Shown here piece after piece: positions 2,564 to 35,314 of a DNA stretch of 64,000 nt (positions are counted from its first letter, which is position 1; each line of letters begins with the position of its first letter). The position numbers and the translations under genes were made by a program. Where the stretch lies: IMG/VR virus record IMGVR_UViG_2974796119_000001, positions 1-64,000 of that record. One strand, given 5' to 3'. The stretch comes from a virus. Lineage: Duplodnaviria; Caudoviricetes. A model generated the notes under the pieces. The model had not been told where the DNA came from. It searched no databases and saw only the letters and a list, made by a program, of their open reading frames with translations.

Positions 2564-2641
2564 ACTCGTTCGGGCGAGTATAAAAAGAGATTAAGCCCGA
2601 AGCGTCTCGCCAGTCTTAGGGGTAATTTTGGCGGGGGTTCT
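2564..2641 (+). ncRNA. Pistol self-cleaving ribozyme (predicted cut G2637/U2638)
   Basis: P1 ACUCG/CGAGU; loop UUCGGG pseudoknots with CCCGAA; AUAAA linker; P2 AGA/UCU; UUAAG...GCG core; P3 UCUCGCCA/UGGCGGGG; GU cleavage dinucleotide. Confidence 0.92.
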
Positions 2642-2661
2642 AAACTAAAAAAAATAAAATT

Positions 2662-5000: not shown

Positions 5001-5324
5001 ATGAATACTTTACAAACTCAATTAGAAACAGTAGCAAAATTCGCAGGATTTACCCACGAAAAAAACTTAGATTGGCATGATAACGAAATGATGATGAAAC
5101 AGAGAATTTATGACGCAGAAGGCGGTAACTGTTTTGATAAGCTTTTATTTTCGGAGTCTTGGGATTGGATTATTCCAGTAGTTAAACTATGTGAAGAAGT
5201 ACAAGATTCTAAAAGCGGTAATTTGCTAGGAGACATTACACACGCTTTACTTGATTTTGATATTGAAAAAACATTTGAAGCAGTAGTTAAATTCATTGAA
5301 TGGTATAACCAACAAAAAAAGTAA
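5001..5324 (+). CDS. hypothetical protein
   Basis: ORF track. Confidence 0.7.
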   Translation: MNTLQTQLETVAKFAGFTHEKNLDWHDNEMMMKQRIYDAEGGNCFDKLLFSESWDWIIPVVKLCEEVQDSKSGNLLGDITHALLDFDIEKTFEAVVKFIEWYNQQKK

Positions 5325-5326
5325 TT

Positions 5327-5770
5327 ATGAAAAAAGAACAAAAAAATAACTGCAAAGCAGTACAAGTAAATCACCCTCTAGACCCTATAGAATGGAATTG
5401 TGACTGTAAAGAAGCTGAAAATGGAGAACCATGTTCTTTTAGTTGGATTCAAACAGACGGAAGTATAAATACCTTGCAATACGGAAGGAAAATGAGTTTT
5501 TTTTCTTGGGAATACTCAGAAATAGGCGGGCAATATACTGACGAAAAAGAAGCTGAAAAAAACAAACATAATTGGAGTTCTAAAATTATTGATTTACATG
5601 ATTACTCAAAAGAAAAAGTAGAAAATATAATTTCGTCTTGGGGTTACTCTATAATAAACTACGATTTAGAAAACAGAAAAATAAAAATAAAACAAGAAGC
5701 CGAAATATTCAATATAAATGATTCTATACAATTAATTTGTGAATGTATTTCTGAATACGAACACTATTAA
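5327..5770 (+). CDS. hypothetical protein
   Basis: ORF track. Confidence 0.7.
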   Translation: MKKEQKNNCKAVQVNHPLDPIEWNCDCKEAENGEPCSFSWIQTDGSINTLQYGRKMSFFSWEYSEIGGQYTDEKEAEKNKHNWSSKIIDLHDYSKEKVENIISSWGYSIINYDLENRKIKIKQEAEIFNINDSIQLICECISEYEHY

Positions 5771-7822: not shown

Positions 7823-8638
7823 ATGAAAATAGTAGGAAAACAAGAAGCAACAAAACAAATTGATAAAATATTCGGGATATTCACTAACAGCTTATCTAAG
7901 ATAAGACCTCATTTCGTATTAACTGGACCAAGTGGAAGCGGTAAAAGTGTAACCATAAAAGCTATGGCTAAAAAACATAAAGTAGGTTATTTTGAAATAA
8001 ACGCTGCTCAATTAACTAAAGAAGGCACTAGCGGTAACAGTTTAAGCAAAGCTTTAACACCTTTATTAAACCACGGAGGGAAACCAACAGTTTGTTTTGT
8101 TGATGAATTTGATAAATTATTTATTTCTGGTAATTCAAATTCAGAATTAGCCCATGAAAGCACTAACGGAGTTCAAAACGAGTTCCTGAAAGTATTAGAA
8201 AGCGATACAGCAACAGTTTTTGGAGATTACGGTAAATATGTAGAGGCATCCGCTTCCAACATCTTATTTATCTTTGCAGGAGCCTTTAATGGGGAAGAGG
8301 ATATTGATATTGACAGATTACGTGACTTAGGTATTAAAACTGAATTTCTAGGTCGTGTAGGATTAGCTTACAACCTTACAAAACTAACTTTAGATGATTT
8401 ATTTGAGATTTTAGACCACTCAGAATTGTTAGAAACTTACTTAGAACTATTTACTGATTCTGATAAAGAAAAAACAGTATTAGAAATAAAAGCCCACCTA
8501 CAAAAAATATATCCAAACAATACTTTGGGAGCTAGAATTATAACATCATTAATTAATCAGTATTTTATTAATGGAGGGTTAACAGAAAAAGAAGTTAAGC
8601 AAATCACATTTCAAAATAAAATGAAGTTAAAAGATTAA
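7823..8638 (+). CDS. ClpX-like AAA+ ATPase (no Zn-binding domain, no IGF loop)
   Basis: Walker A GPSGSGKS, Walker B FVDEFDK, VQNEFLK, ILFIFAGAF, TEFLGRV parallel ClpX motifs. Confidence 0.8.
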   Translation: MKIVGKQEATKQIDKIFGIFTNSLSKIRPHFVLTGPSGSGKSVTIKAMAKKHKVGYFEINAAQLTKEGTSGNSLSKALTPLLNHGGKPTVCFVDEFDKLFISGNSNSELAHESTNGVQNEFLKVLESDTATVFGDYGKYVEASASNILFIFAGAFNGEEDIDIDRLRDLGIKTEFLGRVGLAYNLTKLTLDDLFEILDHSELLETYLELFTDSDKEKTVLEIKAHLQKIYPNNTLGARIITSLINQYFINGGLTEKEVKQITFQNKMKLKD

Positions 8639-16308: not shown

Positions 16309-16734
16309 ATGAGCAATTTATTAAAAAACACAGACACTAAATTAATACTTAAAACAGTAGAACAATACACAGGTATTTCTTACAAACAAGCAAATGTTAA
16401 TTCAAGAAAAAGACCTATAGTTCAAACAAGGCAACTAATTTGCTATCTTCATTGCTTATACACTAAGCACTCATTATACGTAATAGGCTCTTTATTTAAT
16501 TACGACCACGCAACCGTATTGCATGCAAAAAAAACAATAGCAAACCTCATATTTTCTGAACCTAAACTTAGAGAAACTACCGATTTAATTAAGACAGAAA
16601 TAGTTAAAAAAATAGAGATAGTAAATTCACCCAGAGAGACTAAAGAAAGTGTATTTAAAACACTTTTAAAAGAGGTAAAAACGGACGATTTTAAAACAGA
16701 AGACTGGATCGAAAGATTTACAGACGCTATTTAG
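16309..16734 (+). CDS. Stand-alone DnaA domain IV (Bac_DnaA_C)-like protein
   Basis: SRKRPIVQTRQLICYL...SLYVIGSLFNYDHATVLHAKKTI. Confidence 0.85.
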   Translation: MSNLLKNTDTKLILKTVEQYTGISYKQANVNSRKRPIVQTRQLICYLHCLYTKHSLYVIGSLFNYDHATVLHAKKTIANLIFSEPKLRETTDLIKTEIVKKIEIVNSPRETKESVFKTLLKEVKTDDFKTEDWIERFTDAI

Positions 16735-16776: not shown

Positions 16777-16784
16777 TATATTTG
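16777..16784 (+). promoter_or_regulatory. Sigma-A -7 box for the replication operon
   Basis: TATATTTG. Confidence 0.7.
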
Positions 16785-16792
16785 CAATGTTA

Positions 16793-16896
16793 GTATATTA
16801 GTAGGATTCTATACGTAGCAAAAAACATAAAGAAACAATCTTCTTAGATGACAGGCGAATCCTACAACAGCCTTGATTTTAAGGAGATTTTTTTTT
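16793..16896 (+). promoter_or_regulatory. Kissing-loop/attenuator leader of the replication initiator
   Basis: Hairpin-1 loop GTAGGATTC is complementary to hairpin-2 loop GAATCCTAC; hairpin 2 (AATCTTCTTA/TAAGGAGATT) ends in a T9 run. Confidence 0.65.
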
Positions 16897-16903
16897 AACT
16901 AAC

Positions 16904-17671
16904 ATGAACTATATAGAGATTATCAATAACTTTTGGGCATACACAGAAGATAAAGACATATCCTCAAGTGATACATCTGTTTATTTCGCCTTATTAAAAT
17001 ACAACAATTCACTTAACTGGATAAAAGAATTTAGATGTGATTATGCAGTGATTTGTCAATACTCAAGAGTGTCTAAAAACACCTTCTACAAATCAATAGA
17101 TAACCTTTCTGATTTAAAATTAATTCAATACGAAAAAGGAGTTAGAAACCATCTTAAACCTAAAGTTTCTATTCTTAAAATTAAGAACAGAAAGGGAATA
17201 ATAAAGGAACAGAAAGGGAACACAGAAGGAACACAAGAGGAACAGAAAGGGAACTTATATAAACTACTAAACATAGAAACTATTAAACTATTAAACAATA
17301 AAAACTATTCAAAAAAAATTAATGATAATTTAAAAATTTGGTTAGGACTTGAAGAAGGAGTTTTTAATTTTAGAAAAGAACTTTTAAGTTTAGGCGCTAA
17401 AGAAGATTTAGCAAATGACTGGTTAAAAGTTAGAAAAAATAAAAAAGCTTCAAATACAAAAACAGCTTTTAAACTATTTCACAACCAAGTAATAAAATCA
17501 AAAAAAGAAATAAACGAAATTTTGACTATTTGCATAGCTAAAGATTGGAAATCGTTTAATGCTAGTTGGAAAATAGAAACACAAAATTCAAACACCAACG
17601 ATAGAAACTATAATTTCAATAATCAGCCAGGAGGAATACCAAGCGTTCCCTTTGAAACAAACAGAGATTAA
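16904..17671 (+). CDS. Replication initiator (lambda O-like)
   Basis: N-terminal wHTH-like region, internal iterons, next to a DnaC-like ATPase. Confidence 0.75.
   Translation: MNYIEIINNFWAYTEDKDISSSDTSVYFALLKYNNSLNWIKEFRCDYAVICQYSRVSKNTFYKSIDNLSDLKLIQYEKGVRNHLKPKVSILKIKNRKGIIKEQKGNTEGTQEEQKGNLYKLLNIETIKLLNNKNYSKKINDNLKIWLGLEEGVFNFRKELLSLGAKEDLANDWLKVRKNKKASNTKTAFKLFHNQVIKSKKEINEILTICIAKDWKSFNASWKIETQNSNTNDRNYNFNNQPGGIPSVPFETNRD
17185..17253 (+). other. Putative replication origin (iterons)
   Basis: GAACAGAAAGGGAA at 17185, 17207, 17240; GAA(C/T) units every 11 bp; AT-rich AAACTA(C/T)TAAAC repeats follow. Confidence 0.75.
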
Positions 17672-33890: not shown

Positions 33891-33898
33891 TATATTTG
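33891..33898 (+). promoter_or_regulatory. Sigma-A -7 box for the antirepressor unit
   Basis: TATATTTG. Confidence 0.7.
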
Positions 33899-33904
33899 TC
33901 ATGT

Positions 33905-34008
33905 AGTTACGCTCTCACAATAAAGTAACTTAAAGATATTTAACAAAAACCTTATAATGAAAGTAGTGGTGAGAGCCTACTGGATTTATAAGGTTTCTTG
34001 TATTAAAT
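33905..34008 (+). promoter_or_regulatory. Kissing-loop leader of the antirepressor gene
   Basis: AGTTAC-[GCTCTCAC]-GTAACT loop is complementary to AGTAG-[GTGAGAGC]-CTACT loop on the AACCTTATAA/TTATAAGGTT stem. Confidence 0.7.
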
Positions 34009-34014
34009 AACATT

Positions 34015-34743
34015 ATGAAGCAATTAATCAACATCACAGATTCAGAAAAAGGAAAAGCAGTAAACGCAAGAGAATTGCATACTTTTTTAGAAAGTAAACA
34101 AGATTTTACCACCTGGCTTAAAGCTAGAATTTATAAATATGACTTTATAGAAGGAGAAGATTATACGTTCCATAAAGTTATGGAGGGTAATACTAAAAAG
34201 CACGAATACGCATTATCAATTGATTGCGCTAAAGAAATAGCAATGGTTGAAGGAAATGAAAAAGGTAAACAAGCAAGAAGATATTTTATAAATTGTGAAA
34301 AACAATTAAATAAACATAAACTACCAACAACTTTCGTAGAAGCTCTAAAATTAGCAGTTAAACAAGCAGAAGAATTAGAGCATAAAACACTTAAATTAAA
34401 TAAAGCAGAAGAAACAATAAAAGTAAACGAACCCAAAGTTGTTTTTGCTAATACAGTAATGGGAAGTACTAATTCTATTCTAATAAGACAATTTGCAAAA
34501 GATTTATGTGATGGCAAATTTAAAATAGGTCAAAACAAATTATTTGAATGGTTTAGGGATAATAAATACATAAATAAATCAAACGAACCATATCAAAACT
34601 ACGTAGATCAAGGTTTGTTTGAAGTTATCACTCGTTCTATAGGTAGTGGCGAAGAAACTTTCACTAGTAAAACAACAAAAATTACTTCTAAAGGAACTGT
34701 TTATTTCACTCATAAAATAAAATTAAATTACAATGCATCCTAA
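34015..34743 (+). CDS. Phage antirepressor (AntA/AntB N-domain + ANT/KilAC C-domain)
   Basis: VNARELHTFLESKQDFTTWLKARI...AKEIAMVE...RRYFI; LPTTFVEALK; PKVVFA; GQNKLFEWFR. Confidence 0.92.
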   Translation: MKQLINITDSEKGKAVNARELHTFLESKQDFTTWLKARIYKYDFIEGEDYTFHKVMEGNTKKHEYALSIDCAKEIAMVEGNEKGKQARRYFINCEKQLNKHKLPTTFVEALKLAVKQAEELEHKTLKLNKAEETIKVNEPKVVFANTVMGSTNSILIRQFAKDLCDGKFKIGQNKLFEWFRDNKYINKSNEPYQNYVDQGLFEVITRSIGSGEETFTSKTTKITSKGTVYFTHKIKLNYNAS

Positions 34744-35314
34744 AGATAATAATATTATTAAGTGTATTCCTTTTTTAAAAGTAAACAACAACGATTCTAT
34801 TATAAGACTGGATAACCCACATTTAAAATCTAGAAAAAAAACACGTGATTTTTTTAAAAAGAATGGTTATTGGAAACCTAAAACGTATGTTGGGAATAAA
34901 GGATATATATATATGCATTTAATCGATAGACCTGTTCTACTACATAGAGTAATAGCTATTCTTTTAATAAAGAATCCATTAAACTTTACTTGTGTTAATC
35001 ATAAAGACGGGAATAAATTAAATAATCATGTTTCTAATTTAGAGTGGTGTAGCTATAGTTATAACACTAAGCATTCATACAATGTTATAAAAACTCAGTC
35101 ATATAATGACTTAGTTCTTAAAGGTAAAAAAGGCAATATGAAGAGAATAGTTTTAACAAAGAAATTATCAATAAAAATATACAGAGATTACCTAATTGGT
35201 AACACTTCATATAGGGAGTTAGCTAAAAAATATTCAATAGGAAAAACCACCGTTGAAAGAGCTGTAAAAAGTAAAGGACAGATTTACTTTGCTAAAAAAA
35301 TTAAACAACAATAG
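34733..35314 (+). CDS. HNH homing endonuclease
   Basis: LHRVIA...VNHKDGNKLNNHVSNLEWC with a C-terminal HTH. Confidence 0.9.
   Translation: MHPKDNNIIKCIPFLKVNNNDSIIRLDNPHLKSRKKTRDFFKKNGYWKPKTYVGNKGYIYMHLIDRPVLLHRVIAILLIKNPLNFTCVNHKDGNKLNNHVSNLEWCSYSYNTKHSYNVIKTQSYNDLVLKGKKGNMKRIVLTKKLSIKIYRDYLIGNTSYRELAKKYSIGKTTVERAVKSKGQIYFAKKIKQQ

Follow-up and report, generated by a model that had tools for sequence, protein, structure and literature searches.

A leader predicted to fold into two hairpins was located directly in front of an antirepressor-like gene (ant) in the window, i.e., the entire 64-kb stretch of phage DNA that was analyzed. The ant gene and the HNH endonuclease gene behind it make up an accessory island with virion structural genes on both flanks, and a search for close DNA relatives of this region of the window found none. 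The leader, including its promoter box, covers positions 33891–34009; its features are collected in Table 1, together with those of a second leader of the same genome (leader 1) and the genes adjacent to it.

Table 1. Positions in the window of the features that make up the two leaders, and of the neighboring genes
Feature	Positions	Strand	Basis and remarks
DnaA C-terminal-domain HTH gene	16309–16734	+	60.9 bits; directly upstream of leader 1
Leader 1	16778–16903	+	TATATTTG, hairpin, linker, long terminator hairpin, U9, ATG 16904
O-like replication initiator gene	16904–17671	+	Follows leader 1
-7 promoter box, Bacteroidota type	33891–33898	+	TATATTTG (TAnnTTTG); sequence
Hairpin 1	33905–33930	+	AGTTAC 33905–33910/GTAACT 33925–33930, 6 bp, 14-nt loop; sequence, RNAfold
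Kiss strand K (loop 1)	33911–33918	+	GCUCUCAC (GCTCTCAC as DNA); 0 nt after 5′ stem strand of hairpin 1
Tail of loop 1	33919–33924		AATAAA (RNA AAUAAA), 6 nt
A-rich linker	33931–33949	+	UAAAGAUAUUUAACAAAAA, 19 nt; 3′ part pairs with 33994–34009 in the window copy
Basal extension	33937–33949/33994–34009		Includes TATTTAA/TTAAATA
Hairpin 2, terminator-type	33950–33993	+	Sequence, RNAfold, model R1
Hairpin 2, outer stem	33950–33957/33986–33993		CCTTATAA pairs with TTATAAGG
Hairpin 2, internal loop	33958–33961/33982–33985		4 × 4
Hairpin 2, inner stem	33962–33966/33977–33981		AGTAG/CTACT
Kiss strand K′ (loop 2)	33969–33976	+	GUGAGAGC (GTGAGAGC as DNA); apical loop of hairpin 2, 0 nt to 3′ stem strand
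Interrupted U-tract	33994–34009	+	UUUCUUGUAUU, then AAAUA; 6 U in first 8; pairs with linker
AntA + KilAC antirepressor-like gene (ant)	34015–34743	+	242 aa; ATG 21 nt after stem
HNH endonuclease gene	34733–35314	+	Overlaps end of ant

The hairpins, the linker, the outer stem TATTTAA/TTAAATA and the ATG at 34015 that a sequence-only reading of this DNA had described were all present. RNAfold agreed with that description and reproduced the two-hairpin fold with its basal extension at −24.6 kcal/mol and z = −2.1, a value that is modest when taken alone. The pairing of an 8-mer in loop 1 (K) with an 8-mer in loop 2 (K′), to which we refer as the kiss, likewise stood, whereas the loop sizes had to be corrected: loop 1 consists of 14 nt, with its 8-mer flush with the 5′ strand of the stem, and loop 2 consists of 10 nt, namely UG (TG in the DNA) followed by an 8-mer that is flush with the 3′ strand. 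The energy of the isolated K/K′ duplex was −12.6 kcal/mol and that of hairpin 2 was −12.2 kcal/mol. No further copy of the K 8-mer and its complement was found in the 64 kb, where 0.56 would be expected by chance.

The promoter box of the window copy lies ~13 nt ahead of hairpin 1, and the transcript should start at ~33903–33905, flush with this hairpin; we presume this start site from the known layout of Bacteroides promoters. Behind hairpin 2, the U-tract is interrupted (UUUCUUGU, with six U in eight letters), and the basal extension carries the stem to position 34009. The stem so lengthened ends at most 6 nt from the ATG; members of the family described below that were checked by eye are without such an extension. 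A simple terminator scan did not call the site in the window, the large loop being the cause.

A family of kissing-loop leaders in Bacteroidota phages

The stretch in front of ant is a genuine copy of a large family of ~100-nt leader RNAs from uncultured Bacteroidota phages, the hosts of which are probably Flavobacterium-like. A kiss-anchored scan of IMG/VR, in which both 8-mers were fixed and the spacing was left free, returned more than 119 loci, and ~80 of these loci were plainly homologous to the window copy over its full length. The ~80 homologs share the promoter box, the UAAAG and UUAUU of the linker, a long hairpin closed by CCC/GGG, a tract of U6–8 and a nearby ATG, and their first stem varies with the pairing kept (GGUUC/GAACC, GUUGC/GCAAC, GUUAC/GUAAC, GAUUU/AAAUC and others). 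A covariance model (R1) was built from these homologs using a seed alignment (A1) that included the window copy, which scored 76.2 bits, while all else in the window scored 23 bits or less. With a model built only from other phage contigs (R2), the window copy scored 71.1 bits. Since both 8-mers had been fixed in the kiss-anchored scan, two additional scans were made with both loops free: a 3′-anchored scan resulting in 80 distinct leaders (alignment A3) and a 5′-anchored scan resulting in 97 distinct instances. A strict detector applied to all fetched loci recognized at least 187 distinct leaders with 35 different 8-mers. Homologs of the antirepressor, as another route to leaders, gave three loci only. 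The traits of the family are all displayed by the window copy: the match to the model, the TAnnTTTG box, the geometry of an 8-bp kiss, a U-tract, albeit an interrupted one, and an ORF that follows 16–48 nt later.

Pairing between the two loops was pronounced in A3. The longest perfect complement between loop 1 and loop 2 was 8 bp in 67 of the 80 leaders, 7 bp in seven, 9–10 bp in three and 6 bp in three, with 32 kiss sequences among them, and only 3.4% of non-cognate loop pairs reached 8 bp or more. The kiss was written as a pseudoknot for the pair counts; since it is absent from the model, the alignment was not fitted to it. Approximately 98.6–98.9% of the kiss cells were paired, as compared with 71.6% in shuffles, and the covariation score of the kiss was 0.72 vs. 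0.20 in shuffles, none of 500 of which reached 0.72; partners that had been slid scored 0.06–0.11. Changes on both sides of a pair were observed at five of five pairs in hairpin 1, six of eight in the kiss, five of nine in the outer stem and four of four in the inner stem. RNAalifold, when run on a MAFFT alignment, reported the long-range 8-bp helix alone because the stems were misaligned, and model-based alignments were hence used instead.

Among the 97 instances of the 5′-anchored scan, a perfect kiss of at least 7 bp was found in 90 and a kiss with a single G·U in three, the latter as expected for evolutionary intermediates; the rest were one broken kiss of recombinant appearance, one truncated member and two false positives. 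G·U pairs were many and A·C nearly absent, which indicated that the plus strand is the one that folds. All four helices, i.e., the three stems and the kiss, are maintained by compensatory change. The sequence-only reading had held that the loop match exceeds chance and that it marks a cis-located class of structured RNA. The first claim is borne out because at least 187 distinct homologous leaders, and not a single locus, keep the pairing through 35 8-mers; the second claim is likewise supported, and the loop-loop pairing is true.

Some members deviated from this pattern. Those at L321:9879 (+) and L315:2919 (+) have the same 3′ half, with GUGAGAGC in loop 2. Loop 1 of the L321 member, AUUUCCAC, breaks the kiss, and this leader looks recombinant between specificity classes; the kiss of the L315 member carries a single G·U. 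A truncated member on the minus strand of L335, at offset 9103 of the reverse complement, comprises the promoter, hairpin 1 and a plain short terminator, without hairpin 2.

The anatomy of the leaders was well conserved. Loop 1 almost always consists of 0 nt, the 8-mer and 6 nt, a geometry for which 145 and 98 of 152 leaders were counted, and loop 2 almost always of 2 nt, the 8-mer and 0 nt; loop 1 is pyrimidine-rich with a terminal AC, and loop 2 begins with GU. The TAnnTTTG box was present at −10 ± 2 nt from the start of the model in 94 and 92% of the leaders in two samples of the family, and a clean tract of U6–8 in 97% of a sample that had not been selected for the U-tract. The family linker is 14–16 nt in length, with AAAG and UUAUU as its conserved positions. 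An ORF follows the leader in 167 of 167 instances, and the distance from the start of the U-tract to the ATG has a median of 26 nt (interquartile range 21–27 nt). The leader is a self-contained transcription unit, bounded by a host-type promoter and a terminator-type hairpin and tightly linked to its ORF. The sequence-only reading, which had the stem covering the initiation region, is not supported at this point: the family hairpin ends in a terminator-type U-tract ~26 nt before the ATG, and transcription is thus a likelier level of control than ribosome access.

The mean energies were −12.2 kcal/mol for the kiss, −14.0 kcal/mol for hairpin 2, −1.5 kcal/mol for the apical hairpin alone and −4.0 kcal/mol for hairpin 1, and the strength of the kiss was correlated neither with that of hairpin 2 nor with that of the apical hairpin. 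The divergence of the kiss (0.50) equaled that of other short helices (0.49 and 0.56), and several unpaired positions (the A after the kiss, AUA, AAAG and UUAUU) exceeded the helices in conservation. The many different kiss sequences hence look like ordinary compensatory drift and not like a race for new specificities; faster evolution of the kiss than of the other helices was not seen. Rejected was an antiterminator helix between the linker and the 5′ strand of the terminator, which reached −2.9 kcal/mol vs. −2.5 kcal/mol for non-cognate pairs.

Gene context, distribution, and the second leader of the genome

The genes downstream of the family belong to at least 37 unrelated protein clusters, mostly of replication and DNA handling and with no common metabolic theme. 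A DUF6291 protein is encoded downstream in 57 of 149 cases; its relatives are labeled "replication protein" in cultured Flavobacterium phages and occur in Cellulophaga phages as well. The other downstream genes encode O-like initiators, DUF1376 proteins, Prim-Pol proteins (primases), a BT4734-like protein, a helicase, a ParB-methylase, NUMOD4/HNH nucleases and many small ORFs. That the products encoded downstream act on DNA, as had been suggested from the window alone, is mostly so across the family. The accompanying suggestion of autoregulation by the downstream protein is not supported: one conserved leader stands before at least 37 unrelated protein clusters, which renders a product-specific feedback unlikely. 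The upstream ORF shares the strand of the leader in 99 of 113 cases, with ~23 nt between its end and the element. In 48 of 129 leaders, the gene located upstream encodes a DnaA C-terminal-domain HTH protein (Bac_DnaA_C), and this DnaA-C-like protein could regulate the unit or be its partner in origin binding.

One copy each was found in four other carrier genomes of 30–43 kb that are complete or nearly so; the window's own genome (78.8 kb) contains the present copy and leader 1. No tyrosine integrase was found in these five complete or nearly complete carriers. Contigs with two copies were represented by L101:5494–5591 and 7866–7965 (−), L372/L374, and L050:2182–2281 and 5258–5360 (+). True two-copy contigs always differ in the kiss, for example GCUCUCAC and CAUCCUAC, and are too few to separate selection from drift. 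Most apparent two-copy loci were discarded as one element counted twice via overlapping promoter boxes.

A search of 185,579 species genomes with a 3′-anchored pattern, which covers one subfamily only, identified five true members, all of them on small MAG or SAG contigs. Two members, L259 and L294, were found on contigs that had been assigned to MAGs of Candidatus Peribacteria and of Candidatus Fonsibacter and that are most likely phage contigs wrongly binned. Among cultured phages, blastn with two leaders found no carrier, and only a plain terminator turned up when Flavobacterium phages 11b and elemoC were searched with the model.

The sequence-only reading had also counted two leaders of the same architecture in the window. 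This was upheld as far as layout and gene context are concerned, but the loops of leader 1 are mirrored and its similarity to the family models is low. Hairpin 1 of this leader (GUAUA/UAUAC) has a loop composed of UUA and GUAGGAUUC, and the apical loop of its terminator hairpin is composed of GAAUCCUAC and AACA. A kiss of 9 bp is formed between GUAGGAUUC and GAAUCCUAC, in loops of 3 + 9 + 0 nt and 0 + 9 + 4 nt, and the z-score of the fold is −4.0. Leader 1 scored 19.5 bits with R1 and 27 bits with R2 (E 0.02–0.1), and hence falls outside the family by both model and geometry. Its kiss 9-mers have no other copy in the window, and the search for relatives of the replication gene behind it led to one locus, which is without a leader. 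Leader 1 is hence an analog or a distant relative that shares the layout and has the genes typical of the family around it. The leader at 33.9 kb, a true member, was instead recruited to the ant-HNH island.

Two other signals were noted in the same phage. A full-length match to the Pistol ribozyme at 2564–2642 (+) of the window, with 65.6 bits (gathering score 34.5), is located among small early genes. In the tRNA region of the phage, beyond the window, a weak match of 26.9 bits to a loop-free model (G000 73650–73723, +) is probably merely a terminator.

Proposed function of the leader

Our working proposal, which we hold tentatively and at a little under even confidence, is that the leader serves as a cis-acting promoter-proximal attenuator, the terminator of which is locked by the kiss. 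A host-type promoter would begin the RNA flush with hairpin 1, and the kiss, at ~−12 kcal/mol, would lock the marginal hairpin 1 and the apical terminator hairpin into a single pseudoknotted fold. Since the kiss strand comes directly after the 5′ strand in loop 1 and leads directly into the 3′ strand in loop 2, both stems should exit from the same end of the kiss helix. By the stereochemistry of pseudoknots, connectors of 2 and 6 nt should be about long enough to span the deep and shallow grooves of an 8-bp helix. The stereotyped connectors of 0/6 and 2/0 nt would fit a compact pseudoknot that accommodates the kiss together with the full terminator stem, and a linker of 14–16 nt would probably permit this coexistence in such a geometry.

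The locked fold would then behave as a reliable promoter-proximal intrinsic terminator. Termination would be expected at the U-tract, most transcripts ending as an RNA of ~100 nt, and read-through would amount to a set fraction or to a fraction freed by a phage or host factor. The element would in this way throttle or gate transcription into genes for replication, nucleases, methylases and the like, and in the window into the ant-HNH island among late structural genes. Given the interrupted U-tract and the lengthened basal stem, termination may be weaker in the window copy, and its hairpin may in addition influence initiation or the stability of the mRNA.

Some observations count against the attenuator. 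A perfect kiss is kept in several members, including the window copy, despite an interrupted U-tract, and in the guanidine-IV riboswitch, which has the closest architecture, the kissing loop hinders the terminator and does not help it. The lack of a correlation between kiss strength and the strength of hairpin 2 or of the apical hairpin also speaks against the attenuator. Moreover, a plain GC-rich hairpin would terminate without a kiss, and the elaborate fold hence hints at an extra input or another role. A role as a sensor, in which the fold is a phage-specific, riboswitch-like or protein-gated kissing-loop switch that times entry into DNA replication, seems unlikely to us; what the conserved unpaired bases and the internal loop bind would in that case be a small molecule, RNA polymerase, or a factor from phage or host. 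Should the sensor reading be true, the re-codable 8-bp kiss would amount to a natural set of orthogonal RNA parts.

The main rival, which we regard as similarly unlikely, is a kiss that opposes the terminator in a guanidine-IV-like manner, whereby loop-loop pairing occurs first, the basal pairs are hindered and the folded leader reads through, with a ligand, a phage or host protein, or the speed of the polymerase setting whether the kiss forms. The layout of P1, linker and P2/terminator with a kissing loop is the same as in guanidine-IV, the kiss roughly equals the entire terminator hairpin in stability, and unpaired positions outdo the helices in conservation, as they do in RNAs that bind something. 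However, the kiss is made of eight freely varying Watson-Crick pairs with no conserved ligand pocket, the downstream genes have no metabolic theme, and on geometric grounds the linker of 14–16 nt looks long enough for both the kiss and the full stem, provided that the two stems exit from one end of the kiss helix.

A function as stabilizer or insulator, with no control of termination, is in our judgment rather improbable. The 5′ pseudoknot would shield the RNA from nucleases and keep the leader off the AU-rich start region, for which the position of hairpin 1, flush with the predicted 5′ end, would be well suited. The presence of one cassette at a fixed distance before at least 37 unrelated gene clusters and the retention of the kiss in copies with an eroded U-tract are also in line with this role, but the clean U6–8 that follows a GC-closed stem in 97% of the leaders would be unneeded by a pure stabilizer.

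It is very improbable that the terminated leader RNA acts in trans in the manner of the P4 CI or P1 c4 immunity RNAs or of an antisense RNA for plasmid copy control, on the nascent transcript of the same leader or on co-infecting relatives, with the 8-mers as specificity codes. Such a mechanism would accommodate the 35 different kiss sequences and the different kisses of two-copy genomes, and replication initiators and antirepressors are the gene classes that are under the control of P4 CI and P1 c4. Against it, the kiss diverges no faster than other short helices (0.50 vs. 0.49 and 0.56), the 8-mers are without another copy in the window, and both loops are occupied in the folded RNA; moreover, no tyrosine integrase was found in the five complete or nearly complete carriers, and the one-subfamily 3′-anchored pattern recovered just five true members from the 185,579 species genomes, on small MAG or SAG contigs. 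Least probable of all, to a degree that we consider close to negligible, is an element that works as DNA, i.e., an inverted-repeat operator or origin signal, for example for the DnaA-C-like HTH protein: although 48 of 129 leaders, and leader 1 too, are preceded by a Bac_DnaA_C gene, the elements are located inside replication modules, and K ends in CAC(A), which resembles half a DnaA box, the half-sites of an operator would be conserved and not swapped for 35 complementary pairs, the spacing of the 8-mers varies from 43 to 55 nt, three more helices covary with strand-specific G·U pairs, and the promoter and U-tract frame precisely the folded part.

Relationship to known RNAs and implications

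Rfam 15 gave no relevant match, either to the whole window at the gathering score or, at E ≤ 10, to the region of the leader and to one consensus-like member; the leader thus has no named Rfam family, in agreement with the initial reading. In the published literature, no description of this leader family was found. In the guanidine-IV (mepA motif) riboswitch, a kissing loop between two hairpin tips hinders completion of the terminator, and the likeness to the phage leader lies in a 5′ hairpin, a linker, a second hairpin that becomes an intrinsic terminator, and the tip-to-tip kissing loop (PMC11611296). The riboswitch differs in its conserved loops, its weak ligand-dependent contact and its position before bacterial efflux genes, whereas the phage leader has eight freely covarying Watson-Crick pairs, is carried by phages and has no known ligand. 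The Rfam model of guanidine-IV gave no match at E ≤ 10 to the window region or to the consensus-like member, and genes for guanidine efflux or detoxification are not the context of the leaders, which stand before phage replication, nuclease and methylase genes and small ORFs.

Phages and plasmids provide other points of comparison. The P4 CI RNA (seqA/B/C) and the c4 RNA of P1/P7 arise from promoter-proximal leaders with mutually complementary segments and bring about premature termination of replication or antirepressor genes; in enterobacterial lysogens, these RNAs undergo processing and reach linear targets close to ribosome sites in trans. In the phage leader, by contrast, a single compact RNA supplies both pairing partners as hairpin loops; the Rfam C4 model gave no match, within the window the 8-mers were found only in the leader, and the five genomes revealed no tyrosine integrase. 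In the rep mRNA of IncIα and IncB plasmids, pairing in cis joins a 5′ hairpin loop to a remote segment of the leader of the replication-initiator gene. The pseudoknot so formed switches on translation, depends on a leader peptide and is inhibited by antisense Inc RNA; the pairing partner in the phage leader is instead the terminator loop, and neither a leader peptide nor an antisense promoter was noticed there. The lambda PR′–6S RNA–tR′ unit consists of a phage promoter with a terminator within ~100–200 nt, from which release is achieved by Q acting at the DNA, and the put RNA of HK022, which lacks a terminator of its own, comprises two hairpins with an effect in cis on RNA polymerase. We know of no loop-loop pairing in the lambda 6S unit or in HK022 put. 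The phage leader and the lambda PR′ unit have in common a phage promoter closely followed by a terminator, and differ in the loop-loop pairing, which is known only for the leader.

The leader family would add to the structured RNAs of phages a new class that is large and well supported. Natural examples in which a kissing loop is coupled to an intrinsic terminator would then number two, and the eight re-codable pairs of the leader are attractive for RNA engineering. In many small Bacteroidota phage genomes, the leader would represent a single control point, usually placed between the DnaA-C-like and replication genes. If the proposed function holds, the family would show how early and replication genes are controlled in phages of a phylum that has unusual promoters and makes little use of Shine-Dalgarno sequences.
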